Source: Candidatus Blackburnbacteria bacterium RIFCSPHIGHO2_01_FULL_43_15b (GTDB lineage: Bacteria; Patescibacteriota; Microgenomatia; UBA8517; UBA10165). Taken from it: a stretch of DNA of 24,000 nucleotides. The notes under the pieces are model-generated. The model was not told the DNA's origin. It saw only the letters and a program-made list of their open reading frames with translations, and did not search any database. Both the position numbers and the translations under genes were made by a program. The stretch covers positions 1 through 24,000 of the forward strand of contig MHBW01000006.1 of the NCBI GenBank assembly GCA_001816385.1. Reading direction: 5' to 3'. Positions within the stretch are counted from its first letter, which is position 1. The number at the start of each line of letters is the position of its first letter. Below, one piece after another: positions 31 to 24,000 of the stretch.

Positions 31-37
31 TTTCCCC

Positions 38-1818: not shown

Positions 1819-1841
1819 GTAGCGAACGTCAGTAATTTCTG

Positions 1842-2213: not shown

Positions 2214-2246
2214 AGCCAATTATACATCGCGCCGCGCTACTTGTAC

Positions 2247-2274
2247 TTGACCACCTGATCCATTATGTTACACT
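2247..2274 (+). promoter_or_regulatory. Candidate sigma70-type promoter of ftsZ (TTGACC-16-TACACT), near-leaderless
   Basis: TTGACC at 2247-2252, a 16-nt spacer, and TACACT at 2269-2274. The ATG at 2283 is 8 nt after the -10 box, with no SD. Confidence 0.4.
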
Positions 2275-2282
2275 AGTGCCAG

Positions 2283-3497: not shown

Positions 3498-3532
3498 GAT
3501 ACCCCTCTAAGGTCTCGCCTTGCAAGAGCAGA

Positions 3533-3561
3533 TTGACATGAGAAGAGGATGGGGATAGAGT
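3533..3561 (+). promoter_or_regulatory. Candidate sigma70 promoter (TTGACA-17-TAGAGT) upstream of ileS
   Basis: TTGACA at 3533-3538, an exactly 17-nt spacer, and TAGAGT at 3556-3561. This predicts a ~190-nt 5' leader before the ileS ATG at 3760. Confidence 0.45.
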
Positions 3562-3759
3562 GACTCAAATATGCAATTTAGAGCTTTCCTTCGACCAGCC
3601 ATATCTATTATCATTAATAGGTAAACTTGTGCTGGTTTCTTGAAAAAGAACTAAATAGGAAACCAACTCGCCCAGGCTGGTATTTTTGTATCAAAATGAG
3701 CAGAGAAACATTGGCGCTGGAAAGGGAGGTTGAAGCCTTCTTAAGAAAACAAAGAGGTC
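3562..3759 (+). promoter_or_regulatory. Long structured ileS 5' leader, a possible cis-regulatory RNA of unresolved class
   Basis: accagc (3594-3599) can pair with gctggt (3631-3636), enclosing the hairpin ctatta-tcat-taatag (3605-3620). Alternatively it can pair with ggctggt (3675-3681). AGGCUGGUA at 3674-3682 resembles the T-box core GGGUGGUA. An AAGGGAGG stretch at ~3722-3731 and AAGAGG just before the ATG are both SD-like. Confidence 0.3.
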
Positions 3760-6660: not shown

Positions 6661-7739
6661 AATCAGTTGATTGGTTTTTATTTGCTCCGGCTGTTTTTTT
6701 AGTGATTTTGGGCGGGTTGGTTTTGTCAAGTGTTTCTAAAAACGTATATCCCGAACACTTCATTTTTTTGTTCTTGGCTCTGGTGATATTTTTTATTGCG
6801 ACAAAAATTGATGTTGATTTTTTGTTTTCCATATCGGGGTTTCTCTATATTTTTTCTTTACTATTATTGGTTTCAACCTTAGCTTTGGGCATATTATATC
6901 CGGGCGTTGTGACCCGCGGCGCCAGCCGTTGGATTTATTTGGGCCCATTTGTTTTTCAGCCTTCAGAATTGATAAAGCCTGCGCTTATTTTATTTTTTGC
7001 CAACGTTGTTTCCTCGCGTACCGGATTTTTGCGATTTTTTCTGGCTCTGGCGACTTTTCTACCGGCCTTTATTCTTGTGGCGCTGCAGCCGGATTTGGGG
7101 TCTGCCATTGTTTTGTCTGCAGGATTTTTCGGGATACTTTTCTTCGGAGGAGTTTCCTTGCGTATGTTTGCAGGAGCCTTTGTTTTTCTGGCAGCAGTTT
7201 CACCTGCCGCCTGGCAGTTCTTAGCTGTATACCAAAAAACGCGAATTTTGACCTTTTTATCTCCAACGGCCGATCCGCTGGGAGCAGGGTATAATTCTTT
7301 GCAAGCTGTGATTGCAATAGGCAGCGGAGGCTTTTTGGGTCGCGGTTTGGGACAGGGGACTCAAAGCCAGCTGTCATTTTTACCAGAGCGCCACACCGAT
7401 TTTATTTTTGCTGCGCTGTCTGAGGAGTTAGGGTTTGTTGGAGCAATATTGGCAGTAGTTGCGTTCTGTCTAATTTTATACAGATTAATTGTAATAATTA
7501 GGCGGCAAGAGGATGTTTTATTGCAAAGTTTGCTGGGAGGCATATTTTTTATCTTTTTTGCCCATATTATTGTTAACGCGGGCATGAATATGGGTGTTTT
7601 ACCAATAACCGGAATCCCCTTGCCTTTTGTGTCCTCAGGAGGGTCTTCGCTTTTATCCATGTCGGTACTGTTGGGTATTGCGTCAGGAATTTCTTCCAGG
7701 TTGAAAACAGGCTCGATACGCGATACAATATTGATCTAG
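6648..7739 (+). CDS. SEDS-family peptidoglycan glycosyltransferase (FtsW/RodA)
   Basis: Polytopic membrane protein with LQPDLGSA, GSGGFLGRGLGQGTQS, LPERHTDFIFAALSEELGF and PLPFVSSGGSS motifs. The start is GTG at 6648, or TTG at 6657 overlapping the ileS stop as TTGA. Confidence 0.9.
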   Translation: MGILKSVDWFLFAPAVFLVILGGLVLSSVSKNVYPEHFIFLFLALVIFFIATKIDVDFLFSISGFLYIFSLLLLVSTLALGILYPGVVTRGASRWIYLGPFVFQPSELIKPALILFFANVVSSRTGFLRFFLALATFLPAFILVALQPDLGSAIVLSAGFFGILFFGGVSLRMFAGAFVFLAAVSPAAWQFLAVYQKTRILTFLSPTADPLGAGYNSLQAVIAIGSGGFLGRGLGQGTQSQLSFLPERHTDFIFAALSEELGFVGAILAVVAFCLILYRLIVIIRRQEDVLLQSLLGGIFFIFFAHIIVNAGMNMGVLPITGIPLPFVSSGGSSLLSMSVLLGIASGISSRLKTGSIRDTILI

Positions 7740-7741
7740 AT

Positions 7742-8059
7742 ATGCAAAGGTACGCAGTAATTCAGGCCGGGGGACACCAATACCAAGTTAACGAAGGAGA
7801 CGAACTGTTGTTGGACAAATTATCAGCAGGAGTTGGGGAGGCTATAGAATTCGACCATGTGGTTTTAGTTTCAAACGATGGAGAGGTTTCGTTGGGCAAT
7901 CCATTTGTTATTGGAGCAAAAGTTAAGGCGCAGGTCTTAGGGGAAGAAAAAGGAGAAAAAATTCGGGTTGCAAAGTATAAAGCTAAGTCCAGATACCGAA
8001 AAGTCAATGGTTTCAGGGCACAGTTAACCCGTGTGAAAGTTGAAAATATAGTCCTCTAG
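7742..8059 (+). CDS. rplU: 50S ribosomal protein L21
   Basis: MQRYAVIQAGGHQYQVNEGD... is the canonical L21 N-terminus. 105 aa, starting 2 nt after the SEDS gene stop. Confidence 0.95.
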   Translation: MQRYAVIQAGGHQYQVNEGDELLLDKLSAGVGEAIEFDHVVLVSNDGEVSLGNPFVIGAKVKAQVLGEEKGEKIRVAKYKAKSRYRKVNGFRAQLTRVKVENIVL

Positions 8060-8119
8060 CCTTAGAAAATCCCCTACTTTCTCTTCTCAAAGCTGTATAA
8101 CTACATCAAAATAGATGTA

Positions 8120-8148
8120 TTGACAGGTGTGAAAAAGAGTACTATATT
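8120..8148 (+). promoter_or_regulatory. Candidate sigma70 promoter (TTGACA-17-TATATT) between rplU and rpmA
   Basis: TTGACA at 8120-8125, a 17-nt spacer, and TATATT at 8143-8148, 15 nt upstream of the rpmA ATG. Confidence 0.45.
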
Positions 8149-8163
8149 TAACATGGTCATTCA

Positions 8164-8409
8164 ATGTCAAAGAAAAAAGCAGGCGGTAAAATTCGACAAC
8201 AAGCCAACGTTGCAGGTAAGCGTTTGGGGTTAAAAGTTTCCGGTGGAGAAAAAGTCCAAGCCGGAAATATTTTAATTCGTCAAAGAGGAACGGCGTATCA
8301 CGCCGGCCAAAACGTTCGAGTGGGCAGAGACCACACATTGTATGCCACAAGCAAAGGATCAGTTTCCTTTAAAGAGCGATCCGGGAAGTCAGTTATGGAT
8401 GTAGTCTAA
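8164..8409 (+). CDS. rpmA: 50S ribosomal protein L27
   Basis: MSKKKAGGK...GKRLGLKVSGGEKVQAGNILIRQRGTAYHAGQNVRVGRDHTLYA is the canonical L27 sequence. Confidence 0.95.
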   Translation: MSKKKAGGKIRQQANVAGKRLGLKVSGGEKVQAGNILIRQRGTAYHAGQNVRVGRDHTLYATSKGSVSFKERSGKSVMDVV

Positions 8410-8418
8410 AAATTAAAG

Positions 8419-9276
8419 ATGTCTTTTATAAATGCCCAAGTAGAAATGATTCCGGTTGACCAGCTTCAACCGAATCCCCTTCAACCTCGTGGCGTTATTA
8501 CGCCGGAGAGTTTAGTTGATCTTATCGATTCCATCAAAGAACACGGTGTTTTAGAGCCGCTCGTTGTTGCCAAAACACCCGCGGGATATCAAATAATTGC
8601 CGGTGAACGTCGTTGGCGGGCTTCAAAATACGCCGGTTTAACTCATGTTCCGTCGGTTATTAAAGAAACATCCCCCCGCGGCATGCTTGAATTGGCTATT
8701 ATTGAAAACGTTCAAAGAGTTGACTTAAATGCATTGGATCGTGCACGCGGTTTCCAGCGTTTGATGGATGAGTTTGGCTTGACTAATGCTGATGTTGCCC
8801 AAAGGATAGGTAAAAGTCCTGCTTATATTGCAAACTCTTTACGGCTTTTGAGACTTCCTGACGCATTAAAAGATGGTCTTTTATCAGGCTTAATAACCGA
8901 AGGACATGCTCGAGCGTTGGCTGCAATCGAAGATCACGCCTTAGTGGTTGAGGCATACAAAATCATTTTGCGCGAGTCGGGATCTGTACGGCGTGCAGAA
9001 GATTTAGCGCGAAGAATGAAAGTAAAATCTGGACAACCAAAGAAACTTACCTCTCCTATTCTGGCCCCAATAATTATAAGTGAAGAAGTTGACAGGATGG
9101 TGGTGGAATTTAAACAAAGACTAACGGATAGGCGACTTGAAGATAAGCCTACAAATGTTAAAATACTGCGCTCGCAAAGAGAGACAAAGCTGGTAATAGT
9201 TTTTAAAGGTGGTTTAGAAGAGACTGAGGAGCGTCTTCAAAAGCTTTATTCAAGCGTTTCCTCTGTGAATCTTTAA
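8419..9276 (+). CDS. parB: ParB/Spo0J chromosome partitioning protein
   Basis: ParB-box motifs: LQPNPLQPRG, GVLEPLVV, IIAGERRWRASKYAGL. An HTH segment follows (ADVAQRIGKSPAYIANSLRLLRLP). No adjacent parA in the window. Confidence 0.9.
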   Translation: MSFINAQVEMIPVDQLQPNPLQPRGVITPESLVDLIDSIKEHGVLEPLVVAKTPAGYQIIAGERRWRASKYAGLTHVPSVIKETSPRGMLELAIIENVQRVDLNALDRARGFQRLMDEFGLTNADVAQRIGKSPAYIANSLRLLRLPDALKDGLLSGLITEGHARALAAIEDHALVVEAYKIILRESGSVRRAEDLARRMKVKSGQPKKLTSPILAPIIISEEVDRMVVEFKQRLTDRRLEDKPTNVKILRSQRETKLVIVFKGGLEETEERLQKLYSSVSSVNL

Positions 9277-11846: not shown

Positions 11847-11861
11847 ATAACTGCAGACTTG

Positions 11862-11934
11862 TGCACGCATCTGGACTTGAACCAGAGACCTCTGCAATGT
11901 GAATGCAGCGCTCTACCGGCTGAGCTATGCGTGC
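11862..11934 (-). tRNA. tRNA-Val (anticodon CAC)
   Basis: Manual cloverleaf on the minus strand: GCACGCA/TGCGTGC acceptor, GCTC/GAGC D-stem, CTGCA-TTCACAT-TGCAG anticodon arm, TCTGG-TTCAAGT-CCAGA T-arm, discriminator A. No encoded CCA. Confidence 0.9.
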
Positions 11935-12794: not shown

Positions 12795-14018
12795 ATGCTT
12801 AATCTTCTGTTTTTATATCTGGCACTCTTCCCTTTTGGTCAGCTATTAAGTTTTCAGATCTTGCCTTCTGCTCGGATTCACGCAGTTGATATAGCAGCGT
12901 CACTTTTGGTATTTTTTTGGCTGCTGCGGGTTGTGAGAAACAGAAGAATACACCGTCCGCTTTTGGCGACTCCTATGCTTGCTTTTCTGGGAGTAGCTGT
13001 TTTTAGTTTGGTTTTAGGAAGCGTCGGGAAACCTCTTGCATCAGTTGTTGTAGGTGCCTCGTATTTAGCACGGCTGGGGCTTTATGCCCTTTTCTATTTT
13101 GCCGTAGCAGATTTTGTTAAAGCAACCATTTACAACAGCCTTATTGTATGCGGAACATTCTTTGCAATTCTGGGACTTTTGGGCTACATGGCTTATCCAG
13201 ACGCACGAGCCTTATCCGAATTTGGTTGGGACAACCATTATTACCGTCTAGTTGGGCCATTATTGGACCCGGCTTTTACTGGAATTATACTGGTGCTTTT
13301 TTTAATTCTGGTGACACTAAGGAAGTGGGTTGGCCGAAAAGAACAAATACTTGGACTGTTTTTGTTTGTGCTTGGGTGGATTGCCCTTTCTTTGACTTAT
13401 TCGCGTGCAAGCTATGCCGGGGCTTTAGCCTTTTTTGCCGCCGCTTTTATTGCGAAGAAAAATGTGGGATTTATTGTGGGAGGCGTATTGCTTTTTGTTG
13501 CCACTTTTTATTTGTTGCCGCATCCAAAAGCAAGCGCCGGAACCAATTTAGCAAGAACCCAAACTATTTCTTCACGGGTTAATAATTATGAAGAAGCGCT
13601 GCAGGTGGGTTTGAAAAATCCTGCCTTCGGCGTAGGGTATAATTTATACTCTTTAGCCTCGCCAGGTCGGACCTTGCAAGGCTCCGACAGTAAAATCACG
13701 CATACCGGTTCGGGGGTACATTCTAGTTTTCTTTTTGTGTTTGCAACAACAGGGATTGTCGGACTACTCGTTTATTCGTACTCGTGGTTTAAAATACTTG
13801 TCTTGGGGTGGAACAGACGAAAAACTATTACTGGCCTTGCCCTTTTTTGTTCAACTTCGGCATTGCTTGTGGAGTCAGTTTTTGACAACTCGCTCTTTTA
13901 CCCTTGGGTAATGGGATGGATGGGTATTTTGTTGGCAATGCAAAAAAAACGAACGGTGGATTGTGTACCTGCAACGAACGAGCCGATCTGTCATTCCCGC
14001 GAAGGCGGGAAACTATAG
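12795..14018 (+). CDS. O-antigen ligase/polymerase-like (Wzy_C-type) polytopic membrane protein
   Basis: About 10 TM helices. There is a central SLTYSRASYAGALAFF segment and a periplasmic-loop region (NNYEEALQVGLKNPAFGVGYN) typical of the O-antigen ligase family. The last ~10 codons (ICHSREGGKL) are supplied by a hairpin repeat element. Confidence 0.8.
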   Translation: MLNLLFLYLALFPFGQLLSFQILPSARIHAVDIAASLLVFFWLLRVVRNRRIHRPLLATPMLAFLGVAVFSLVLGSVGKPLASVVVGASYLARLGLYALFYFAVADFVKATIYNSLIVCGTFFAILGLLGYMAYPDARALSEFGWDNHYYRLVGPLLDPAFTGIILVLFLILVTLRKWVGRKEQILGLFLFVLGWIALSLTYSRASYAGALAFFAAAFIAKKNVGFIVGGVLLFVATFYLLPHPKASAGTNLARTQTISSRVNNYEEALQVGLKNPAFGVGYNLYSLASPGRTLQGSDSKITHTGSGVHSSFLFVFATTGIVGLLVYSYSWFKILVLGWNRRKTITGLALFCSTSALLVESVFDNSLFYPWVMGWMGILLAMQKKRTVDCVPATNEPICHSREGGKL

Positions 14019-14065
14019 AGATATTATAGATGTTGTATAGATTCCGTGTTTGACACGGAATGACA
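13990..14065. repeat. Composite palindromic repeat (GTCATTCC...GGAATGACA) between convergent genes
   Basis: gtcattcccgcgaaggcgggaaactatag ... tatagattccgtgtttgacacggaatgaca. There are two internal hairpins, ttcccgc/gcgggaa and attccgtg/cacggaat. The termini GTCATTCC and GGAATGAC are mutually complementary. Confidence 0.8.
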
Positions 14066-14928: not shown

Positions 14929-14940
14929 AAGAGCATTGGG

Positions 14941-15012
14941 AGCCGAGGGGGAGATTTGAACTCCCGACCTACTGTTTACGATACAGCCGCTCTACCACTG
15001 AGCTACCTCGGC
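14941..15012 (-). tRNA. tRNA-Thr (anticodon CGU)
   Basis: Manual cloverleaf on the minus strand: GCCGAGG/CCTCGGC acceptor, GCTC/GAGC D-stem, GCTGT-ATCGTAA-ACAGT anticodon arm, GGGAG-TTCAAAT-CTCCC T-arm, discriminator U. No exact encoded CCA. Confidence 0.9.
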
Positions 15013-15032
15013 GTAGAAGTATTTTACCACGA

Positions 15033-17990
15033 TTAATGGGTTTTGCGCCGAACGTCCAGGATAGTCGTGGCTGCGATGGTCAATAAAAGAAACACGAAAC
15101 CGGCAAATTCGAGATATTGGGGTAGATAAATTATTACCAGCTTACTGCCTGTAGGATTGTCTACTCTCCACCCGTTTTCCCAGTTGTTTACTAAAAAGTG
15201 GCTGGTCACCTTTTTACCAATAAATGGCGCAAGGTATAGTGGAGCAGAGGTTTCATACATCTGCCAGCCAGAGTTAAAGCCTTGAGACAAAACTATAGTT
15301 TTTGGCAATTGATCTTTTAAATTAACAACATAAGTTGCCTGGTTAGGATGTTTTGTTTCCAGAGCTTGTGTTTGAACCTGATTATTCTGTTCGTCTCCAA
15401 AATGTATTCCGGCCAAATATTTATAAGGGAATGTATATACATTAACGCTACCCAAATCGTTAATAGTTAAATCATTGCCCGTGGAACGATTTTCAATGTG
15501 CAGAGTATAGCCTACGCCATCATCTTCCATGGGAGGCTGGATTAAATAGGTTGTTTTTAAGTTGTTTGTTTTTGGTAAATAAACTTCTATATCCGCTTTC
15601 CTGCTTATTGGGTTTTCCAGCCAAAAAAACAAAGGTTGGCCTTTGCTGTTTTTGCTCTCGAGAGAGATTATGTAGGCAAAGTTATGCTGCAGATTAGGCA
15701 GCCAAACCGACAGGCCGCAGACGGCCCCTTTACTTTTCATCTCCAGAACATTTTTACCGTCAATAGTGACAGCTTTTGCACCGCTTTTATCGGGATCTTT
15801 ATCTGTGCAGTATTTGTTTTGCTGAGTAGTTTCTAAATCTATAGAGGCCGAAAAGTAGCCGGAAACTTTTGGAAAATTCACCTCAAGTTTGTTGTTCGAA
15901 ACTCGGGGCCGGGGCCCAAGATAGGCAACATTTCTTAAATCTTTCGGATCGGGTAAAGGCAATTCTTGGCTTTCATCGGGGAAAACAGGTGAGGCAGCAT
16001 TTGCCGGAACATTTGCAGAAATAGTATATGTATCAGTACTTTCAGAAATCTCAAAACTTTGGTCTCTAAAAGACCTGAAAGGGTAATAGTAGTTTTCTCC
16101 GGAAGAATAATGGCTGTTATGAGAAAATGTTTTATCTTCAAAAGCATAAACATGCTTTGGTCCTGCGCTGGGCAGGTTGTCGGCTGCAAAAACGAAGTTG
16201 TTAATTTGTGTGTCTAAATTAACTTTGTAGATGTCAATATTTCCGTATTGTTGGACAAGGGTTGCTTTGCCGGATTTTTCTAAAAGACCTTTCAACTCAT
16301 CGGTGTAAAGCGTTTTTTGGTTAATGGAACTGAAAACGTTTTTATCAACCAAAAGCCAGTTAACCTGGTATTTTTCTAAAACCTGGGATAAAGTTTGAGG
16401 CTTTTTTGAATAAAGCGCATAATTTAATTCCGAATAATAACCTTCGTTGTAATTGCTCCAGGGATCAAACGCGCGGTCTAAAATTGGCTGATTTATTCCG
16501 TACCACAAAAATCCTGAGCCTTCGTATCCCCACCAGTAATAATTCCAGCTCCAAAAAGTATATTGCGGAAAGTTGGCAATTCGGGTATTTTGATCTTGAT
16601 TTTTGAAAAAATCAAAAACTTGGAAATATTCTTGGGGGATTTTGCTTTGTTCCCGGACCCAAAACAACTTGCCGGTATATACAGGGAATAGGTACGTGAT
16701 TAACAAGAACAAGATAGCTCCTAGTGAAAGTCTTTTAAATAGTTTTCGCGAAGCGAGCTGAACTAAGCTTAAGCCTCCCACACCAAGGAGTAGTGAATAG
16801 GCCAATGAGGCTAATATCGAGAATTTGGTGAAGGGAAAACGAAAAGCCTCTGTGAAAAACGGAAGACTATTCCTGAAAAGTGTCACAATCCAGGAAAAAG
16901 GAGGAGTGCTAACCATAAGCATGGTGAAGGCAAAAATAAAGAGTGCAGCAGCCGTGATTTGCAAGCGGTTACGGCTTTTGAGGGCGGAATACAACCCAAA
17001 AATTATTAAACCGAAAGTTATCCATCCGGCTGCCTGGAAGGGCAAAGAGTACGAATAATCGCGCCAGTTTGCCATTAAATAACCTGTATTTCCTGAAAGG
17101 TTAATATCTGTGCGGTCAAACCACAAGCCCCGAAGCAGTGCTACATTTTGGATGTTCCCAAAGTTTTTATTTTCCAAAAAGACAGTTTGGGAGGACATTT
17201 GATTAATTTTGGCTGCCGGAACAACGGAAGCATTGGTGAAAGTAAAGTAGAGAAAAGGTAAAAGCCAGAATGAGTTTACGAGAACTGTGGACACGAAAAT
17301 CGTGGCCACGTTAAGTAATGCCTGTAAATTTTTTTGGTAGACAATGTGCACTAAGCTCAAAAGGCCCAAGGCTAAAAGTGTGACCAAAAATAATGTAGGA
17401 ACGTAATAGGAGGGTGTAGCGGCCAGAGAAACTAACATAAAGACCAATAAACTTTTCCAAGACTTGACAGACAGAAACCGCAATGCTGACCAGACGATCC
17501 AGGGTAAAAATGCAAAGTGAGCTGTAAAAGTTTCAAATGGGATGTAAAAAACCTGCAGAGTTGATAAGTTAAAGATATAAAAAATACCGGCGGTAGTGGC
17601 AGCTAACCTTTTAGGAAAGCTTGCCTCTTTGCCGGCAGAAAGAGTGGTTATAGAAAGTTGGTATGCCCCCAGGCCCCCAACAAGCAAACATAAAAAGGTC
17701 CAGGTGTACCTAAGAAGGTTTTGCGGAAGGATCAGGGATAAAATAAAAATGTATATCTGGTGTAACAAGCCGGCAGCATGACCCATTCCTCCAAGCAGTC
17801 CTACTCCCTGATATTCCTGCCAAACGGCAAAAATGGACCGCTTGATATTCATCCAAAAGTTAAACTCCGGATGTAAATTATCCCAGCCGGTCAAATAAGC
17901 TCCGCTTTTAAAGTTAGTGATATATAAAGCCGTGACAAGCGCAAAGATAATTAATTGCGGAAAATACAAAGAGGCTTTCTTATTGATCAT
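15033..17990 (-). CDS. Large polytopic membrane protein, GT-C-fold glycosyltransferase-like (AftD/YfhO-like), with a big extracytoplasmic C-terminal region
   Basis: 985 aa. About 12 or more N-terminal TM helices, with a first-loop GWDNLHPEFNFWMNIKRSIFAVWQEYQGVG segment resembling the Asp-containing loop of GT-C enzymes. A ~500-aa soluble region follows, then a final C-terminal TM helix. The family assignment is from pattern memory, not a search. Confidence 0.8.
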   Translation of the reverse strand: MINKKASLYFPQLIIFALVTALYITNFKSGAYLTGWDNLHPEFNFWMNIKRSIFAVWQEYQGVGLLGGMGHAAGLLHQIYIFILSLILPQNLLRYTWTFLCLLVGGLGAYQLSITTLSAGKEASFPKRLAATTAGIFYIFNLSTLQVFYIPFETFTAHFAFLPWIVWSALRFLSVKSWKSLLVFMLVSLAATPSYYVPTLFLVTLLALGLLSLVHIVYQKNLQALLNVATIFVSTVLVNSFWLLPFLYFTFTNASVVPAAKINQMSSQTVFLENKNFGNIQNVALLRGLWFDRTDINLSGNTGYLMANWRDYSYSLPFQAAGWITFGLIIFGLYSALKSRNRLQITAAALFIFAFTMLMVSTPPFSWIVTLFRNSLPFFTEAFRFPFTKFSILASLAYSLLLGVGGLSLVQLASRKLFKRLSLGAILFLLITYLFPVYTGKLFWVREQSKIPQEYFQVFDFFKNQDQNTRIANFPQYTFWSWNYYWWGYEGSGFLWYGINQPILDRAFDPWSNYNEGYYSELNYALYSKKPQTLSQVLEKYQVNWLLVDKNVFSSINQKTLYTDELKGLLEKSGKATLVQQYGNIDIYKVNLDTQINNFVFAADNLPSAGPKHVYAFEDKTFSHNSHYSSGENYYYPFRSFRDQSFEISESTDTYTISANVPANAASPVFPDESQELPLPDPKDLRNVAYLGPRPRVSNNKLEVNFPKVSGYFSASIDLETTQQNKYCTDKDPDKSGAKAVTIDGKNVLEMKSKGAVCGLSVWLPNLQHNFAYIISLESKNSKGQPLFFWLENPISRKADIEVYLPKTNNLKTTYLIQPPMEDDGVGYTLHIENRSTGNDLTINDLGSVNVYTFPYKYLAGIHFGDEQNNQVQTQALETKHPNQATYVVNLKDQLPKTIVLSQGFNSGWQMYETSAPLYLAPFIGKKVTSHFLVNNWENGWRVDNPTGSKLVIIYLPQYLEFAGFVFLLLTIAATTILDVRRKTH

Positions 17991-17997
17991 GGGAAAG

Positions 17998-18918
17998 CTA
18001 ATTCTGGGCGCCTAAAAGGAGGAGCGCTACTTTTTTAGTATATTGTATAGGAGCCCAAATGGGTAGAGACAGAGAGAAGCGCTTAATGCCTCGCATGTGA
18101 GCATACAAAGCGTATACAGCGCTATTTGGCAAGGCCAAGACGGCTAGAGCCTGCGCTAGGCATACGAAGACGCCCTTAAAAGTGGGTTTGTAGCCATATT
18201 TGGCGACAGCTCGAATTCTTACCTTAAGCGTCAAAAGAAAGCTTCTTTTGGGGTTCTTCATAGAAGATGAAGCCCGGTAAACGCGGTATTGCAAGACAAA
18301 GTCGGGAAGATTGGCAAATTGACCATTTCTAAAAAGCTTGAAAAGCATATCAAGATCGTCAACTGGATGAAGTTGACTATCAAGCTTAAGTGAGTCTTGT
18401 GACGCCAGCTTTCTGCGAATCATTATGGTTGGATTTTGAACAGACATGGAAGTAAACATCATTTTATAGATGTCTTGATGAGTTTTAGGATTGAGTTTTT
18501 CTCCTGTTATTTTGCCTTCCTCGTTTATAACCAAACATTGGCCGCCAACAAGGACTATTTTGGGATGAGTTTGAAGATAGCGGACTTGCTTTTCAATTCT
18601 TTCGCTAAGCATAATATCGTCTGCGTCCATGCGGGCGATATATTCTCCTCGAGCGGCAGATAAGGCTTTATTGGCTGTGTAGCCAATTCCACGATTTTTA
18701 TCATTGACAAAGACCTTGATCCTACGGTCGCTCAAGGCGTATTCGCGCAAGATCTTTAATGACTTATCGATAGAGCCGTCGTTAACGCAAATGACCTCAA
18801 AATTGTTATAAGTTTGCCCCAGGATGCTGTCCAAGCAGGCACGAAGATAGCCTTCGGCGCTGTAGACCGGAAGCAAAATGGAGACTAGGGGTTGGCTTGA
18901 GACAGTGTGCTTGTTCAT
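17998..18918 (-). CDS. Family 2 glycosyltransferase
   Basis: VSILLPVYSAEGYLRACLDSILGQTYNNFEVICVNDGSIDKS followed by ARMDADDI (DxD). Classic GT2_A. Confidence 0.9.
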   Translation of the reverse strand: MNKHTVSSQPLVSILLPVYSAEGYLRACLDSILGQTYNNFEVICVNDGSIDKSLKILREYALSDRRIKVFVNDKNRGIGYTANKALSAARGEYIARMDADDIMLSERIEKQVRYLQTHPKIVLVGGQCLVINEEGKITGEKLNPKTHQDIYKMMFTSMSVQNPTIMIRRKLASQDSLKLDSQLHPVDDLDMLFKLFRNGQFANLPDFVLQYRVYRASSSMKNPKRSFLLTLKVRIRAVAKYGYKPTFKGVFVCLAQALAVLALPNSAVYALYAHMRGIKRFSLSLPIWAPIQYTKKVALLLLGAQN

Positions 18919-18929
18919 GGTTTTAAGGT

Positions 18930-19016
18930 GTCATTCCGTGCCTGACCTTTCGTCATTCCGTGCTTGACACGGAATCTATATCAGTTTTTTGGATTCCTGC
19001 TTTCGCAGGAATGACA
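18930..19016. repeat. Cluster of hairpin repeats: one truncated half-unit plus one complete composite GTCATTCC...GGAATGACA element
   Basis: gtcattccgtgcctgac (18930-18946, partial), then gtcattccgtgcttgacacggaatctata (18952-18980) and ggattcctgctttcgcaggaatgaca (18991-19016). The cluster abuts the left edge of the high-GC segment. Confidence 0.8.
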
Positions 19017-19039
19017 AAATGACTCGTTTATTGAAAAAA

Positions 19040-19053
19040 TAAATTGTAAATTA
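19040..19053 (+). repeat. Left copy of the direct repeat bracketing the high-GC segment (TAAATTGTAAATTA)
   Basis: It matches 21631-21645 (TAAATTGTAGAATTA) at 14 positions with a single 1-nt indel. It sits exactly at the AT-rich to GC-rich transition. Confidence 0.6.
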
Positions 19054-19056
19054 AAG

Positions 19057-19130
19057 GGGAGGCAGGAGAGAATCTTGGGGCAATTGTCACTTGCGTGACG
19101 AATTGTCAACCAATATCTCTCCCACCTCCC
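19057..19130 (-). terminator. Two-tier hairpin followed by a T-rich tract, a candidate intrinsic terminator of the islet genes
   Basis: The outer arms gggaggcaggagaga (19057-19071) and tctctcccacctccc (19116-19130) pair at 13 of 15 positions. The inner stem caattgtcac/gtgac(g)aattg lies at 19081-19105. On the minus strand it is followed by ctttaatttacaatttatttttt, 22 nt after the stop of the 19152 ORF. Confidence 0.45.
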
Positions 19131-19151
19131 GGGGCATAGGGAAGGGTATGT

Positions 19152-20369
19152 CTACCCGCAGGAAACCAAGTGATCCTTCTGGATCTCCTGGGGGAACGGC
19201 ATCCGCCCGATGACGCCGCCCGAGACACTACCCGAGTTGGGAGCGCTTGCGTAGAAGCACATCCCCACTGGGTTTGGTGCACCATCCACCCTAATGAACG
19301 CGCCGAACACGGTCTCGCCCTTGTCGAAATTGACTTGGGCGTCACCCGTGCCGGTGAACCGCACTGGCCTGCCAGTAGGCGCAATGACGCCTCCGGTTGC
19401 GGGTTGCGGCGTGGCCGTGGGAGCGGGGGGTGCCTGGGCAGAGGCCAGGAATGGCTTGCCGCCGCGGGACTGGATCAGCTGCTCGTCGTGCGCCTTCTTC
19501 CAAAGGAGCGCAGCATGAGTCCAGTCACCAGCGGCTTGTTTCAGATACCCCTCCTGCGCATCCCCGGCCTGGCCGAAAAGGTGCTGCCCGTCCAGCGAGT
19601 AGCTGGTTGGTTCGAGAAGCTTGTAGCCCTCGAACACCTCCGGCTGAAGGGCCATCGTGGTAGAGCAGACTACCACGAATCCGTCCGTGATGGCCACGAT
19701 GTTGTTGCCCTCGTGGAAGGTTTGGCGAACCTTGCCTTCCATTCCGTCGATCGCCCAGCCGAACGCCAGCCCGATCTCGCCAGGAAGGACGAGAAAGCCG
19801 ATCGTTTTGGTCTCGCCCTTTTGAGTTTCCGTACCCCAGCGGCACTGCGAGAGATCGCGGTTGAGCATGACGTTGCTGACAGCGACGAACTGCGACTGTG
19901 CGGAAGCCGGGGACGATTCGGGCGCGGCTGTCTGGTCGGAAGCCGGTGCGGAGGCGTCGGTTGCTACAGCTGGCAGGTCGAGATAGCCGACGTACCGGCC
20001 GGTTTTGCCTGCGTGGTTGACCACCGCGTCGAGCGATGCCCCCTCGCAGAAGAAACCGGAGCTGACCTCGAACCCGAGGGGAAACGGTTCGGCGGTGTCG
20101 TTCTTCAAGACGATCCAGACCGGCTCGTTGTTGGGGCCAGCACGCCCATTGAGCGCGCCTCCCGCAACGACCGCGAAACGGCCTGGGAAGAGCGCTTGGA
20201 AAAGCGTCTCCGTCTGCCCGGCACCGGTGGCACCGTAGTTGGTGCACGTGTCAAAGGGGCGAAGGTCGTTGATCCCTACAGCGTGTGCGGGGATCGGAAC
20301 GGTGCCGATCAACATGGCGAGCGCCATAACGACGGCCGAGAGCTTGTGCAAGTGCTTCGTGTAGTTCAT
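19152..20369 (-). CDS. Hypothetical secreted three-module protein (islet ORF C)
   Basis: ORF 19152..20417. I prefer the ATG at 20369 (MNYTKHLHKLSAVVMALAMLIGTVPIPAHA-VG is a signal peptide with an AHA cleavage site), with GAGG 7 nt upstream. Three globular segments are separated by Ala/Pro/Ser/Thr-rich linkers (ATDASAPASDQTAAPESSPASAQ and ASAQAPPAPTATPQPATGG). I recognise no family. Confidence 0.75.
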   Translation of the reverse strand: MNYTKHLHKLSAVVMALAMLIGTVPIPAHAVGINDLRPFDTCTNYGATGAGQTETLFQALFPGRFAVVAGGALNGRAGPNNEPVWIVLKNDTAEPFPLGFEVSSGFFCEGASLDAVVNHAGKTGRYVGYLDLPAVATDASAPASDQTAAPESSPASAQSQFVAVSNVMLNRDLSQCRWGTETQKGETKTIGFLVLPGEIGLAFGWAIDGMEGKVRQTFHEGNNIVAITDGFVVVCSTTMALQPEVFEGYKLLEPTSYSLDGQHLFGQAGDAQEGYLKQAAGDWTHAALLWKKAHDEQLIQSRGGKPFLASAQAPPAPTATPQPATGGVIAPTGRPVRFTGTGDAQVNFDKGETVFGAFIRVDGAPNPVGMCFYASAPNSGSVSGGVIGRMPFPQEIQKDHLVSCG

Positions 20370-20397
20370 CTTTTTCCCTCTTCTGCACTTTGCAGAA

Positions 20398-20456
20398 ACA
20401 AAAAGGTGGTGCTCCAACTAGCCTCGGCAAGACTGCCAAAGTTTTGTCGAAGCACC
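20398..20456 (-). terminator. Weak terminator-like stem plus T-run between islet ORF B and ORF C
   Basis: On the minus strand, GGTGCTTC...GGAGCACC (7 of 8 bp, enclosing the inner hairpin ggca-gtct-tgcc) is followed by accTTTTTgTTTc. A separate perfect 7-bp hairpin ttctgca-ctt-tgcagaa (20381-20397) lies just before the ORF C ribosome-binding site. Confidence 0.3.
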
Positions 20457-20467
20457 TCTGTGCTGCT

Positions 20468-21136
20468 CTACCCGATGCGTTCCAGCTTCCTGGAACCTGG
20501 GTCGTATCGGTACCGGACGCCTCGAGACGTACGCCCTGAGGCTTTCTCGAAGCCGGTAACACGGTCTTGCCAGGCCCAGTCAACCCATTCTGTTGGAACG
20601 AAGCCCAGCTGTCCGTCTGTAACGACGAACTCTGCTTCCTCAAACGGGCACAGGATCTCGACGATCCCGGGGTTGCTGGAGAACAGGTTATTCCCTGCCA
20701 TCGCCAGGCTGACCGCATCTCCGAAGAAACGCCATCCGCCGGTTTGGCAGGATGCCTTAACCTTCGCCTGGAAGGGGACCCCCTGCATCAGCGGGCTTTG
20801 CGGCTTGCCTGTCTGCCAGGGCCCGTACCAACGCCGCGCACCGCCATCGAAGTTGTAGACCACCGTGTCAAGGATGGCTACGCCGATTTCACTGGCGGGT
20901 GCAGGTCCTGCCGGCGCATTCACGGGCGGTATGTCGACGTAGACCGTGCTTGGTGCCGGCGTAGCCGCGGGCGGGGCAGCGGTCGGCTGAGCGCCAGGAG
21001 CAGCCGTGGGGGACGCGACGCCTCTGCCGGGCGCAGGCCCAACGATGGGCTGTGTCCCCGGGATGGGAACGCCGCACTGTGCCAGAGCAACCGCCAGTAG
21101 AGCGACTACCCCGATCACTGCCAGGATGGTGCGCAT
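20468..21136 (-). CDS. Hypothetical secreted protein with a Pro/Ala-rich linker (islet ORF B)
   Basis: MRTILAVIGVVALLAVALAQCG is a signal peptide (ALA-Q cleavage, or a non-canonical lipobox with Cys21). A ~60-aa Pro/Ala-rich tract follows, then a ~140-aa Trp-rich globular domain. AGGAGG lies 5 nt upstream of the ATG. I recognise no family. Confidence 0.75.
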   Translation of the reverse strand: MRTILAVIGVVALLAVALAQCGVPIPGTQPIVGPAPGRGVASPTAAPGAQPTAAPPAATPAPSTVYVDIPPVNAPAGPAPASEIGVAILDTVVYNFDGGARRWYGPWQTGKPQSPLMQGVPFQAKVKASCQTGGWRFFGDAVSLAMAGNNLFSSNPGIVEILCPFEEAEFVVTDGQLGFVPTEWVDWAWQDRVTGFEKASGRTSRGVRYRYDPGSRKLERIG

Positions 21137-21152
21137 TTCTTCCTCCTAATCC

Positions 21153-21500
21153 CTAGTGCTTCTTGAGCCAGTCCCAGGCGTTCCTGAGACTGTCACGAAC
21201 ATCGTCCGCTGCTGCCGTTGTTCGGGTGGTCTCCTCCCTCACTTCCCTTACGGTTGTCCGTGTGGGACGTTTCGGAAGGGGGACACCAGCCCTGGTCATT
21301 TCGCCGGCGAGCTCCGTGCGCAGGCGCTTGGCCTCCGCGAGTTCTTCCTCGAGCCGGTTGACATCTTCGTCAGCCGCGAGGTACGCCTCCTGCATTTGAA
21401 TGCGGCGGCGCTCTCGGGCTTCACGAAGCTTGTTCAGCCGGTCACGCGGAGATTCGGCGTCAACGACTTCCGGGTCTTCGGGTGTGCCTGAACCTACCAT
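21153..21500 (-). CDS. Hypothetical small charged coiled-coil protein (islet ORF A)
   Basis: 115 aa, Glu/Arg-rich, with a heptad-like segment (RLNKLREARERRRIQMQEAYLAADEDVNRLEEELAEAKRLRTELAGEM). No signal peptide or TM helix. AGGAGG lies 8 nt upstream of the ATG. Its stop is 16 nt before the ORF B start. Confidence 0.65.
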   Translation of the reverse strand: MVGSGTPEDPEVVDAESPRDRLNKLREARERRRIQMQEAYLAADEDVNRLEEELAEAKRLRTELAGEMTRAGVPLPKRPTRTTVREVREETTRTTAAADDVRDSLRNAWDWLKKH

Positions 21501-21630
21501 TTTCTGTACCTCCTATTTTCCCTATGCCTTTGTTAAAGATCTTGTTCTACACTCAAGACTTTCGTCGAGCGCCCTGTCCAATTAAGGATGGGGAAGACGG
21601 TTGTGAAGTATACAGCCGTTTTCTCCGGCC

Positions 21631-21645
21631 TAAATTGTAGAATTA
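21631..21645 (+). repeat. Right copy of the direct repeat bracketing the high-GC segment (TAAATTGTAGAATTA)
   Basis: It matches 19040-19053. Its last 3 nt (tta, 21643-21645) are the reverse-complement stop codon of the DUF11-like gene. Confidence 0.6.
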
Positions 21646-22293
21646 TTTACCTATTCTTTTAACGCGGGCAAGTTTGTTGCCAATGAGTCCGAATAGACCT
21701 GAAGAAATTAAAATTGCGGCTGCCCCCTCTGCTCCGGCTTTTGGAAGTTCACGGGCGACCTTTTTCTCCACACAAACTTGTGTCGTATCACGGTCAACCT
21801 CATTTCCCGATTGAGCAACAGATGTGTTCACGTCACAAATAACGGTTTTGTCAGAAGGGAGCTTGTCAACATTAACAACCTTAGCTTTTAACTCTTTTTG
21901 AACAGAATCGCCTACTTTTAATGTATCAATTTGGAAAGAGTAGGGTTCGCCTGCAATTTGCTCCAAAAAGCTGGGCAAAGTATCAGTGACCTGAATGTTG
22001 GTCAATGTGTTATCACCAGTATTTTTGATCGTAATTCTAAATTTAACTTCGTCTTGAGGAGCAAAATTATGTCTTGTTGCCTCATCTAAAGTTATGTTGT
22101 CAACGAATTTGTTTACTTTGGGGTTAGGATTGAAGACTTCTTTGTTTACCTGTAGTTTATCAACGCTGACGCAAACTTGTCCATATTGTCCGCCATATTG
22201 GGCAACGCAAGAAACAGCGCCCACGACTGGGTTTGATGTAAGGGCAAGAGTTGTGGCGGCGGAAATTGTGGCGACTGCCAGCTTTTTATTCAT
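21643..22293 (-). CDS. Sortase-substrate surface protein with a DUF11-like repeat domain and a C-terminal LPKAG sorting signal
   Basis: Signal peptide MNKKLAVATISAATTLALTSNPVVGA. DUF11-like strand pattern FRITIKNTGDNTLTNIQVTDTLP. The C-terminus has LPKAG, then a hydrophobic stretch (AEGAAAILISSGLFGLIG), then a basic tail (NKLARVKRIGK). Confidence 0.85.
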   Translation of the reverse strand: MNKKLAVATISAATTLALTSNPVVGAVSCVAQYGGQYGQVCVSVDKLQVNKEVFNPNPKVNKFVDNITLDEATRHNFAPQDEVKFRITIKNTGDNTLTNIQVTDTLPSFLEQIAGEPYSFQIDTLKVGDSVQKELKAKVVNVDKLPSDKTVICDVNTSVAQSGNEVDRDTTQVCVEKKVARELPKAGAEGAAAILISSGLFGLIGNKLARVKRIGK

Positions 22294-22458: not shown

Positions 22459-23385
22459 TTAATTCAAACCTGTAACAGTTTGGGTTAGACTACCTCCGTA
22501 AACGCTTGTAGCAGAAGGAATTGGGTCAAGATAAGCAACGACAATTATTCTTTTCCAAACTGTCCCTGGAGGCCAGCAGCTTTGCAAAATTAGGCGCTGG
22601 TCACCTTCGCGGGAATTAAGAAGCCAGGAAAGATCGTCCCCCTCGACAATATGTTTCTCAGCGACTTTATATTTGTAGATCTTGCCCTGGTAAAAAACGT
22701 AAATCTCATCCTGGCTTTCAGGATCCAGCTCGCGCAATAGATAAAAAACAGCGTTATAGCGAGAGACGTTCCATGGCCCGTTTGTTGAATGGGCAAAGAC
22801 GTAAGTTCCCCCGGGCTGGTCGGGGTAAGAAGAGCCGTAGGCGTGCGCAACACCAACTTTTAAAGCTTCTGCATAAACTGATTGTTGACTGGAATCAACG
22901 TTGGCAATAACGGGCGCCTTGGCGTCAATTTTAGGGACATATATAGAAAAGTCGGTATTCGGGGCGCCAATTTGAGCGGCAAATTGCTTGGCGTACTCTC
23001 TTTGTTGAGTCTCTTCCTTGGCTTTCTTGATATTTTGCATATATTCGGTATTTGCTACTTTTTCTTGCACCAGGTTTTTAGCTTTATTGGTTTGGTAGGA
23101 AAATTCAGAGGCGACAATTGGCTTGGTAGTCAAAACTACTCCGGCCATTCCAAGGGTAACAAGTCCTGCCCCAACACCGCGGATAATGCCTATACCCAGG
23201 TCGTTTCCTAAAATGTTGTCCCTGGCTGCCAGAAACCTTTCAAATGGGATGGTTAGTGTAATACCCTGGCCTGTAACAACGATAACCTCGCCAGAAGTGT
23301 GTCCCCAGGAGGCATCATAAATAATACCGCGGTAAGTTCGCCATGGCCAATTAATTGGTAGATTGACATTCATATCCTGTAACAT
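22459..23385 (-). CDS. Sortase-family transpeptidase with an extended N-terminal region
   Basis: The catalytic triad context reads YVFAHST (His), RLILQSCWPPG (the TLxTC-equivalent Cys) and WKRIIVVAYL (Arg). A TM helix lies at ~residues 62-85 (GIGIIRGVGAGLVTLGMAGVVLTT). TAATAT (plus coordinates 23392-23397) lies 6 nt upstream of the ATG on the minus strand. Confidence 0.85.
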   Translation of the reverse strand: MLQDMNVNLPINWPWRTYRGIIYDASWGHTSGEVIVVTGQGITLTIPFERFLAARDNILGNDLGIGIIRGVGAGLVTLGMAGVVLTTKPIVASEFSYQTNKAKNLVQEKVANTEYMQNIKKAKEETQQREYAKQFAAQIGAPNTDFSIYVPKIDAKAPVIANVDSSQQSVYAEALKVGVAHAYGSSYPDQPGGTYVFAHSTNGPWNVSRYNAVFYLLRELDPESQDEIYVFYQGKIYKYKVAEKHIVEGDDLSWLLNSREGDQRLILQSCWPPGTVWKRIIVVAYLDPIPSATSVYGGSLTQTVTGLN

Positions 23386-23537: not shown

Positions 23538-23609
23538 GCGGGTGTAGTTTAGTGGTAAAATGCCTCCTTCCCAAGGAGGAGACCGGCGGTTCGAGTCCGC
23601 TCACCCGCT
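23538..23609 (+). tRNA. tRNA-Gly (anticodon CCC)
   Basis: Manual cloverleaf: GCGGGTG/CACCCGC acceptor, GTTT/AAAT D-stem, CCTCC-TTCCCAA-GGAGG anticodon arm, GGCGG-TTCGAGT-CCGCT T-arm, discriminator U. No encoded CCA. Confidence 0.9.
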
Positions 23610-24000
23610 CACTTTGTATCCGGTCGGGGTATAACGAAGGTTTGATTAGGGTAGATTAAATCCGGGTGGTTAGCGATAACTGTTTTGTTGGCTCTCCAGA
23701 TTTTTACCCATTGGAATCCATCCCCATAGGCTCGAACTGCGATCTTCCAAAGACTGTCGCCGCGGACAACGGTATAGCTTTCGCCTGGTATTGCCTGAGG
23801 CTGGGGCAAGATTTTTGGAGTTGGTGTAACGGTAAAGCTTGGGGTTGTGGAAGTTGGGCTGGGGACAGGTGAGATTTGGATTGTAAGCTGTCTAGTTGCA
23901 GTTTGGGGCATAGCCAACTCCTGACCTTCAGAAATTATGCCAGGGTTTGCCAACTTGTTAGCTCGGGCAATATCAGTCCAGTTGTATCCAGAGCCGTAAA
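23609..24000 (-). CDS. LysM-domain protein, 5'-partial (continues beyond the window end)
   Basis: The C-terminal LysM reads YTVVRGDSLWKIAVRAYGDGFQWVKIWRANKTVIANHPDLIYPNQTFVIP. The frame stays open upstream of the listed TTG start and reads YGSGYNWTDIARANKLANPGIISEGQELAMP, a second LysM, up to position 24000. The two are joined by a Pro/Thr/Ser linker. The stop abuts the tRNA-Gly 3' end. Confidence 0.85.
   Translation of the reverse strand, partial: YGSGYNWTDIARANKLANPGIISEGQELAMPQTATRQLTIQISPVPSPTSTTPSFTVTPTPKILPQPQAIPGESYTVVRGDSLWKIAVRAYGDGFQWVKIWRANKTVIANHPDLIYPNQTFVIPRPDTK

Follow-up and report, generated by a model that had tools for sequence, protein, structure and literature searches.

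Why does a short segment of DNA stand far above the GC content of the genome that carries it, and is its composition the trace of a recent import or a maintained state? This question is raised by the first 24,000 nucleotides of contig MHBW01000006.1 from Candidatus Blackburnbacteria bacterium RIFCSPHIGHO2_01_FULL_43_15b (hereafter the window, 24 kb), in which a GC-rich islet of ~2.6 kb (positions 19049–21630) carries three genes, designated A, B, and C. The islet is preceded by a sortase gene and a gene for a CLIPPER surface protein, and followed by a family 2 glycosyltransferase gene (GT2). A preliminary description of this DNA had reported a compositional break, open reading frames (ORFs) of no assignable family, a lack of mobility genes and a cell-surface setting, and had put forward, as an inference, that the islet came from a high-GC partner organism. 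All of these observations stand, while the recent acquisition of a discrete islet is not supported. The islet is a native and syntenic unit whose genes are shuffled between lineages and whose high GC content is maintained, a description in which we place high confidence.

Composition and Origin of the Islet

GC content is 61.3% in the islet and 42.1% in the remaining 21.4 kb of the window. These values are ~13 standard deviations (SD) apart, same-length windows elsewhere in the 24 kb having a mean GC content of 42.1% (SD 1.5%, maximum 45.4%). No other part of the window reaches 54% GC, and the transition spans ~150 bp at either edge of the islet. The abruptness of the break had been noted from hand counts, which we were able to reproduce (75% for positions 19381–19440, 61.7% for 20101–20160, and 41.7% for 18001–18060). 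All codon positions are raised, the third one most: GC content at the first, second, and third positions is 0.72/0.48/0.66 in gene A, 0.67/0.56/0.70 in gene B, and 0.63/0.49/0.77 in gene C, as compared with ~0.50/0.36/0.42 in the flanking genes. Third-position GC content (GC3) is 0.66–0.77 in the islet vs 0.36–0.47 in these flanking genes, and it is evenly high in each 40-codon block of each islet gene. At 4-fold degenerate sites, the frequencies of C, G, T, and A are.40,.29,.17, and.14 in the islet, and.22,.18,.35, and.26 in the flanks. The islet thus keeps the pyrimidine excess of the host coding strand and displays a plain shift from A or T (weak) to G or C (strong). Amino-acid composition is also affected, with Ala, Gly, Pro, and Arg up and Ile, Lys, Leu, Asn, and Tyr down. 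Within the islet, GC content reaches 0.62–0.64 in the coding sequences, 0.42–0.47 in the leader, and 0.49–0.52 in the spacer between genes B and C. GC skew ranges from −0.11 to +0.13, i.e. about zero.

Our dataset contains 13 loci: that of the window lineage (W) and those of 12 divergent Blackburnbacteria-like lineages from several sites. Contigs and loci other than W are designated L0xx, L015 being GCA_016198465.1 and L019 being CAYYLO010000011.1. In all 13 loci the islet is the sole stretch of at least 54% GC, with a GC content of 0.58–0.61 between flanks of 0.40–0.45, and where complete it is 2.45–2.95 kb long. The order sortase–CLIPPER–A–B–C is found in L015, L018, L021, L022, L023, and L026/L027, followed by GT2 wherever the contig reaches that far, and L017, L019, and L020 carry the C–GT2 side. 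The CLIPPER gene precedes the islet in all 11 loci with upstream DNA. L025 and L029 have a rearranged set in this slot, with genes for a C-like protein that shares only the middle domain of C, for a small membrane protein, and for a different lipoprotein. In L028, the CLIPPER gene is followed by genes for a membrane protein, a lipoprotein, and a protein made of four copies of the C-terminal module of C, within a different wider neighbourhood.

Two of these loci call for separate remarks. In L028 (positions 1–7626), the islet unit adjoins a Y1 (IS200/IS605-type) transposase gene and a gene for a TrwB/DUF87 coupling-protein-like ATPase, and a 696-nt AT-rich spacer separates the CLIPPER-side hairpin (see below) from the islet; this neighbourhood of mobility genes may hint at the means by which the unit is moved. 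The L019 contig, a GTDB-representative contig, is titled 'uncultured Gammaproteobacteria bacterium', yet it is syntenic with the window and 74–92% identical to it. It was probably mis-binned, or belongs to a mis-labelled metagenome-assembled genome (MAG).

A single, recent horizontal acquisition of the 2.6-kb islet from a high-GC partner would account for the abrupt compositional break. In addition, an exact 9-mer that the preliminary description had missed, TAAATTGTA, occurs at both islet edges in the window lineage (19040–19048 and 21631–21639), a repeat that arises in 179 of 20,000 shuffles. We nevertheless consider such an event very improbable. The unit occupies the same site, with the same GC content, in 12 other divergent lineages. 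The empty site expected in relatives (the CLIPPER gene directly beside GT2) was found in none of the 13 loci, and scans of genomes and metagenomes returned islet-bearing loci only. Instead of pointing to a high-GC partner, homologues of B and C were recovered only from Blackburnbacteria and close relatives, where they are genes of the lineage with the same ~60% GC at the same site. No homologue of the islet proteins was found in any high-GC organism or in other phyla, apart from a repeated 70-amino-acid (aa) Cys module. Similarly, no relative was detected in IMG/VR, INPHARED, or PLSDB, on which ground we rejected phage or plasmid cargo. As previously described, the islet lacks any integrase, transposase, or phage gene and does not abut a tRNA gene, its only ORFs being A, B, and C in searches against Pfam, PHROG, and NCBIfam; the nearest tRNA gene (Gly-CCC, 23538–23610) lies 1.9 kb away, and none of the three tRNA genes of the window is located at a junction.

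As for the edge repeat, nothing comparable exists in five other lineages, in which the longest word shared between junctions is 5–7 nt, and its two copies in the window lineage partly overlap a −10-like hexamer and a terminator U tract. We thus rejected it as a target-site duplication or att site, and it probably results from chance. While conserved synteny refutes a simple recent acquisition, an ancient one by the ancestor of the clade is possible, although this would not explain why the deviant composition has persisted.

The preliminary description had also raised the concern of an assembly or binning chimera, in which a fragment from a high-GC organism would have been joined to a contig of the Candidate Phyla Radiation (CPR), the ultra-small bacteria to which the present clade belongs. 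The composition of the islet would fit this scenario, as would the ends of some contigs, since L010 and L012 stop at 18980–18981 and L009 and L011 near 20930–20976. However, the islet and both junctions are 100% identical in ERZ4903072 and ERZ27254752 (megahit ENA assemblies), SRR2090153 and SRR3989344 (Logan assemblies), JGI 3300025323, and the Rifle ANAN16 scaffolds, all found by exact-protein look-up, so that several assemblers and runs span the junctions. The same architecture recurs with different sequences in the 12 divergent lineages, including those from other sites, and conserved regulatory hairpins bridge the junctions. We therefore rejected a chimera, whose probability we regard as negligible. 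L009 and L011 end within the Pro/Ala linker of gene B (20866–20971) with clusters of mismatches, and the L006 scaffold has gaps (runs of N) at ~20228–20254 and 21063–21067, which suggests that strains differ in this linker or that it is hard to assemble. More generally, compositional islands in MAGs do not necessarily reflect recent horizontal gene transfer or mis-binning.

A Recombination Mosaic between Vertically Inherited Flanks

The sortase and CLIPPER genes divide the lineages into two groups, {W, L015, L022} and {L018, L021, L026}, with 72–82% identity within groups and 51–64% between them. In either gene, no informative site pattern is more frequent than this split (28–32%), and the trees of the two genes agree with each other. 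The CLIPPER gene, congruent in phylogeny with the sortase gene, is vertically inherited, and the frame formed by sortase–CLIPPER on one side and GT2/GT1–Wzy on the other is conserved.

The islet genes have other histories. Gene A exists in two non-homologous forms, a coiled-coil protein of 105–119 aa (W, L015, L021, and L022) and a multi-pass membrane protein of 134–148 aa (L018, L023, L026, L025, L028, and L029), whose distribution cuts across the flank groups. Among coiled-coil forms, identity is 72% between W and L021, from different flank groups, and 35% between W and L022, from the same one. Similarly, identity in gene B is 78% for L015 and L026, as opposed to 45% for W and L022. The contrast is also found in gene C: L015 and L018 share 83% amino-acid identity, with a synonymous divergence (dS) of 0.60, while their flanks are 53–62% identical with saturated dS, and W and L015 share only 59% identity in C. 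In gene C, informative sites most often separate {W, L022} from the other lineages (35%), and the five most frequent splits do not include that of the flanks. By contrast, site patterns in the B–C spacer follow the phylogeny of the flanks.

Exchange also concerns parts of genes. Sliding-window identity in a six-lineage alignment shows that L015 and L018 are 87–97% identical at the nucleotide level over the middle domain of C (97% over ~225 nt), as compared with ~60% in the sortase and CLIPPER genes and 30–45% in gene A, and the alignment of C proteins displays mosaicism at the level of domains. The mosaic lies between the CLIPPER stop codon and GT2, and its borders are those at which GC content changes. 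As the samples come from different sites, a co-assembly artefact is unlikely.

A comparison of W with L019 (window positions 14937–18936 for the flank) gave another mosaic of identities, with 91.9% over GT2 and the adjacent gene encoding a 985-aa protein as compared with 73–77% in the flanks next to them; the islet itself is 82.5% identical. Genes downstream of the islet are thus also reached by recombination tracts.

Maintenance of the High GC Content

Flank dS between W and L015, L017, or L018 ranges from ~1.3 to unmeasurable (Nei-Gojobori method), and saturation of this kind implies that third positions have been turned over. Even so, GC3 is 0.62–0.84 in the islets of all lineages vs 0.32–0.47 in their flanks, and non-homologous occupants of the slot, namely the membrane-type A and the genes of L025 and L029, are equally GC-rich. 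A composition gained in a one-off acquisition would have ameliorated, and the high GC content is therefore maintained rather than left over. The GC content of the islet is thus a maintained state which coincides with the recombining block, and the force that maintains it would be either a recombination-linked fixation bias from weak to strong bases, i.e. GC-biased gene conversion (gBGC), or selection.

We propose that the islet is a native transcription unit of fixed position with three cell-envelope genes, whose products would be a small protein of the cytoplasm or membrane (A), a lipoprotein (B), and a secreted Cys-containing protein of several domains (C). Functionally, this unit would belong with the sortase-anchored CLIPPER protein encoded just before it, in Blackburnbacteria as well as in related CPR bacteria. 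The coding sequences behave as a replaceable cassette pool, from which whole genes and sub-genic tracts are swapped between lineages, presumably through uptake of DNA and homologous recombination, with the conserved hairpins and flanks as anchors. Meanwhile, the CLIPPER, sortase, and GT2 genes are inherited vertically. Recombinants would be retained by diversifying selection on exposed surface proteins (for host attachment or phage evasion), and gBGC acting at this recombination hotspot would be the most likely force to maintain the GC content.

Several observations are consistent with gBGC. The raised GC3 coincides with the mosaic block, the islet departs from the host coding strand by a plain weak-to-strong shift that leaves the pyrimidine excess in place, and the first 80 codons of GT2 in the window lineage, just beyond the islet, also have a raised GC3 (0.60–0.62 in 40-codon blocks), which hints at spill-over. 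According to our own rough calculation, moving the equilibrium GC3 from ~0.40 to ~0.75 needs a scaled bias B of ~1.5. Recombining genes have a higher GC3 in most bacterial species analysed (PMC4450053), and Patescibacteria keep genes for homologous recombination and competence (PMC12455944).

Other points weigh against the proposal. Known bacterial gBGC effects are modest differences between gene classes rather than a 35-point jump in GC3 over 2.5 kb (PMC4450053). The border at the CLIPPER gene is knife-sharp, GC3 being 0.2–0.45 up to the stop codon. The non-coding parts of the islet have a GC content of only 0.42–0.52, while a purely regional bias should lift them too, although these values would be compatible with such a bias if hairpins, ribosome-binding sites, and T runs constrain the sequence there; the leader and the B–C spacer are made up mainly of conserved functional elements. 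Substitutions polarised by parsimony show an excess of strong-to-weak over weak-to-strong changes (183:115 overall and 108:54 at third positions), a ratio without power to discriminate, as simulations of equilibrium and of decay both yield ~2 at third positions. As for the proteins, their surface function is deduced solely from signal peptides and neighbourhood, and the AlphaFold2 (AF2) model of full-length C is poor (pLDDT 48). A further difficulty is that the high GC content could be supplied from outside.

Under such a source–sink import, cassettes native to a reservoir that is GC-rich but unsampled, such as relatives, an episome, or a host organism, would be redelivered to the slot faster than they ameliorate. 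This would explain why all codon positions and the amino acids resemble those of a genome of ~62% GC, and it is in line with gene histories that show recent transfers between lineages, with the transposase and TrwB/DUF87-type ATPase genes beside the L028 unit, and with the richness in Gly, Ala, Arg, and Pro of most of the distant relatives of the C-terminal module, 39 of 70 having a GARP/FYMINK ratio of at least 1.6. However, in the 13 loci all inspected full-length or middle-domain relatives follow a CLIPPER gene and lie between AT-rich flanks, full-length matches to C were recovered only in the clade when 1.84 billion representatives were searched with a profile, and no relative was found in the virus and plasmid databases mentioned above. 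Moreover, conservation of the non-coding elements inside the islet goes along with the host lineage, and neither an integrase nor att-like repeats accompany the islet. Import is thus an unlikely explanation in our view.

We judge direct selection on the nucleic acid to be similarly unlikely, whether for mRNA stability or structure, for avoidance of an AT-specific nuclease or of spurious promoters, or for translational throttling by rare codons. It would fit the concentration of the GC gain in coding sequences, the weaker gain in leader and spacers, the GC enrichment common to non-homologous slot genes, and the sharp border at the CLIPPER stop codon. The vls cassettes of Borrelia have likewise been inferred to be held by selection at 49% GC in a 28.6% GC genome (PMC11499132). 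Yet no specific benefit can be named, and selection leaves unexplained the coincidence of the GC block with the recombination mosaic. In addition, amino-acid composition is shifted as well, beyond codon choice and as under a pervasive bias. The ribosomal protein genes of the window are unbiased (GC content of 0.42 at 7501–8500), and we also rejected translational selection for high expression, as these genes are not GC-rich. Overall, gBGC ranks above direct selection and import, which we place about level. We favour it tentatively as the specific cause, with something short of even confidence, and the whole statement (a native, shuffled surface-gene cassette locus with a GC content held by gBGC) seems to us evenly poised between right and wrong. 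It is conceivable, though we lean against it, that the clade keeps this 2.5–3 kb operon ~19 GC points above the genome because it is an extreme recombination hotspot, which would be the sharpest localised footprint of gBGC seen in a prokaryote, or else that the high GC content is required by a vls-like mechanism of cassette exchange or expression.

Why bacterial GC content exceeds mutational expectation is a long-standing question, for which selection and gBGC are the main candidates. The present locus brings together, in one cell and with the same mutational machinery, DNA of ~60% and ~42% GC separated by sharp borders, with a visible contrast in recombination and replicates in at least 13 lineages. 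If either of the two readings just given is true, it offers a natural experiment to separate mutation bias from fixation bias within one small genome. The cause is testable with public metagenomic reads, by asking whether weak-to-strong alleles are favoured where recombination is high.

Islet Genes and Their Products

The preliminary description recognised a small charged coiled-coil protein and two signal-peptide proteins with Ala/Pro-rich linkers, all on the minus strand, and none assignable to a family. We recovered the same three ORFs, none of which had a match in Pfam, NCBIfam, or PADLOC, and for which PHROGs gave coiled-coil noise only. Gene A (21153–21500) encodes a charged coiled coil of 115 aa that lacks a signal peptide; against PHROG and PADLOC, its product yielded nothing but coiled-coil noise (E of at least 0.008). 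The 222-aa product of gene B (20468–21136) has a signal peptide whose last residue is a conserved Cys. A variable linker rich in Pro and Ala connects this peptide to a globular domain of ~140 aa, which is strongly conserved, with 80 invariant alignment columns. As the Cys of the signal peptide is lipobox-like (LAGC or LSAC in relatives), the product of B is probably a lipoprotein. Counted from its MNYTKHL start, the product of gene C (19152–20369) has 405 aa. It carries a signal peptide, and Ala/Pro/Gln linkers connect its three domains: an N domain, a middle domain, and a C-terminal module of ~70 aa with two Cys. No homology was found between B and C. Sortase signals are not present in A, B, or C (B ends in ...KLERIG and C in ...LVSCG).

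Homologous clusters number three for A, and five for B and seven for C among 5.8 billion, all within the same clade. The profile search with C returned 73 matches, with full-length relatives confined to the clade. The middle domain of C was found in three other proteins (P0014, P0016, and P0017), and the two that could be inspected occupy the same slot. The islet ORFs are conserved as proteins (ratio of nonsynonymous to synonymous divergence, dN/dS, below 1), and dN in the islet genes is 3–5 times that of the flanks, many of the comparisons being between exchanged alleles. No Rfam match came near any gathering score, and since the ORFs are conserved as proteins we rejected a structured non-coding RNA as the nature of the islet.

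The C-terminal module (19152–19370 in the window, residues ~335–405 of C) has a much wider distribution. Its pattern, F..GD.V.GA.I.L.DG...C....AP..G.V..GVI.PW..E...C, was recognised in 137 instances from 75 proteins (P0015–P0082 among them), none of them with a match in Pfam. It is present in two to four copies, often in tandem with Pro/Ala/Thr linkers between them, in ~70 secreted-looking proteins. An AF2 model based on 59 aligned instances predicts a small beta domain with one helix (pLDDT 92), for which Foldseek returned no significant match in the PDB, the best one being PliG (E = 0.55). The locus thus flags an undescribed family of ~70-aa two-Cys domains. One module-carrying protein also has a domain resembling the C-terminal domain of the RNA polymerase alpha subunit.

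The cell-surface setting suggested by the preliminary description is borne out by the signal peptides, the lipobox-like Cys of B, and the adjoining sortase, CLIPPER, and glycan genes. The signal peptides and this Cys, linkers of a wall-spanning type, the invariant adjacency to the CLIPPER gene, and LysM, glycosyltransferase, and Wzy neighbours suggest that the products of A, B, and C form a cell-envelope module, which is probably surface-exposed. As fast-evolving, horizontally shuffled envelope proteins of episymbiont-like CPR bacteria, they would be candidates for variation in host attachment or phage receptors.

Two features of this region concern gene calling. A plus-strand ORF of 562 aa (19170–20858) lies antisense to C, the B–C spacer, and half of B. 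We rejected it as a real gene, as it is absent from all relatives, in which the longest antisense ORFs are only 160–290 codons, and it is best described as a shadow ORF of GC3-rich coding DNA. An ORF of this kind would mislead gene callers; in L006, L013, and L014, genes have been called on the minus strand at this place. In L015 (9244–9894), gene B was called at 133 aa, with an in-frame-looking start (MIRGLLAVIG...) within the upstream 249-nt 'spacer', possibly as the result of a frameshift, a pseudogene, or a sequencing error. If it were a true pseudogene, it would provide a test of GC maintenance without coding constraint.

Non-Coding Elements of the Islet

All non-coding elements are described on the minus strand. 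The upstream edge of the islet is formed by a hairpin, GGCCGGAGAAAACGGCTG ... AACCGTCTTCCCC (21590–21630), which directly follows the CLIPPER stop codon. In a comparison of leaders from 10 lineages, this hairpin can also be recognised in L018, L021, L023, L025, L029, and L028, and it is near-identical in W, L015, and L022 even though their synonymous sites are saturated. Both sides of the pair have changed at two of 12 positions, and no U tract follows. This hairpin may act as an attenuator, a processing site, or a recombination anchor. The rest of the leader (21501–21589) includes a conserved motif, CTTTAAC..AGGCATAGGGAA, as well as the site of ribosome binding for gene A. A −10-like TACAAT is located at 21634–21639, as a consensus match only.

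The spacer between B and C contains a stem-loop of 13+8 bp followed by a T run (20402–20458), which is kept in six lineages. Its consensus fold has an energy of −34.3 kcal/mol, with 21 pairs retained in the six lineages, and it looks like an internal terminator or attenuator. At the downstream edge, a 3' element (19035–19130) combines a 15-bp outer stem (19057–19071/19116–19130), an inner hairpin inside it, and a U-rich tract. This element, which corresponds to inverted repeat I12, folds at −51.5 kcal/mol (z = −5.9). The stem is retained in L015, L017, L018, and L019, with compensatory changes seen by eye, and the element is a probable intrinsic terminator marking the downstream islet edge. 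We thus read the non-coding parts as regulatory: the hairpin behind the major CLIPPER gene would be an attenuator, and the other two elements would be an internal and a final terminator. The conserved hairpins may, in addition, anchor homologous exchange of the coding segments between them.

Neighbouring Genes

The genes around the islet, all on the minus strand, are those described previously, with a GT2 gene of the glycan side on the left and the CLIPPER/DUF11 and sortase genes on the right. The CLIPPER gene (21643–22293) is AT-rich and encodes a surface protein with an LPKAG sorting signal and a match to Pfam DUF11 (now CLIPPER; E = 1.3e-9). It is preceded by the sortase gene (22459–23385; Pfam Sortase, 3.6e-19). 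Downstream of the islet, GT2 (17998–18918) matches Pfam Glycos_transf_2 (4.1e-36). In all loci it adjoins the gene for a 985-aa membrane protein (15033–17990), which has no Pfam match and whose L017 orthologue shows a weak match to GT-C/AftD; this protein probably serves the envelope glycan cluster as a large glycosyltransferase or as a polymerase.

Palindromic intergenic repeats, GTCATTCC...GGAATGAC, occur at 13990–14064 (Wzy/Big_6 spacer) and 18930–19015 (GT2/islet spacer), and an 8-mer of these repeats is present in five copies vs 0.54 expected. Palindromes with GAATGAC ends are found at the same place in L015 and L019, and the ends of contigs L010 and L012 at 18980–18981 fall inside the GT2/islet element. 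Both elements look like repetitive extragenic palindromes or miniature inverted-repeat transposable elements (REP/MITE-type).

The three tRNA genes of the window (11861–11934, 14939–15012, and 23538–23610) encode Val-CAC, Thr-CGT, and Gly-CCC, all with a wobble C that reads only the G-ending codon. ACG and GGG have frequencies of 0.35 and 0.27 in the islet vs 0.12 and 0.18 in the flanks, while GTG is not enriched, and this match between tRNAs and islet codons may be a coincidence.

Comparison with Known Systems

In its abrupt compositional break and its genes without assignable function, the islet resembles a classical genomic island. It differs from one by the lack of an integrase, a tRNA/att junction, a sporadic distribution, an empty site, and homologues in a donor; of five classical features of mobile islands it fails four, and only its composition agrees. 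Another resemblance is with the sortase pilus clusters of Gram-positive bacteria, in which a sortase gene lies beside that of an isopeptide-domain CLIPPER/DUF11 substrate with an LPxxG signal, a hairpin follows the major subunit gene, and accessory genes come after. However, A, B, and C lack sorting signals and are thus not pilin subunits, and their link to the CLIPPER protein consists of conserved adjacency only.

The vls locus of Borrelia provides a parallel in composition. Its GC content is 49.1% in a 28.6% GC genome, in all strains, and is tied to gene conversion; a strong maintenance pressure was inferred by the authors (PMC11499132). Like vls, the islet is a surface-protein locus with a GC content far above that of an AT-rich genome, conserved from one locus to the next (0.58–0.61 vs 0.40–0.45 in the 13 loci). 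On the other hand, vls consists of an expression site and arrays of silent cassettes, with a coding-strand GC skew of 0.52 and runs of G, while skew in the islet is about zero, no G-quadruplex (G4) motif is present on either strand of the islet, and tblastn with A, B, and C against the rest of the 24 kb detected no silent copy (no match at E ≤ 1). The variation seen in the islet is that between lineages. A vls-like system was thus rejected, as GC skew, G4 motifs, and silent copies (within the 24 kb) are all absent. The islet shares with the genes studied by Lassalle et al. (2015) a high GC3 that is linked to recombination and is not explained by optimal codons (PMC4450053). The published effect is modest and genome-wide by gene class, while in the islet it would amount to an extreme hotspot that is localised, sharply bordered, and long-lived.

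The closest systems in behaviour are replacement-type flexible islands and surface-antigen cassette loci. The islet resembles them in its fixed slot between vertically inherited flanks, its alternative and even non-homologous versions, and the discordant phylogeny of its cassettes. In O-antigen rfb and capsule loci, which are flexible islands of this type, a fixed slot holds alternative divergent versions with discordant trees, the products act in the envelope, and composition is atypical in all versions. Compared with these loci, the islet differs by a GC content ~19 points above that of the genome instead of below it, by three small proteins instead of a sugar pathway, by sub-genic exchange, and by its CPR hosts. 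The locus is thus a compositionally deviant, recombining surface-gene cassette locus in CPR bacteria, with a GC elevation that is unusually large, sharp, and long-lived.

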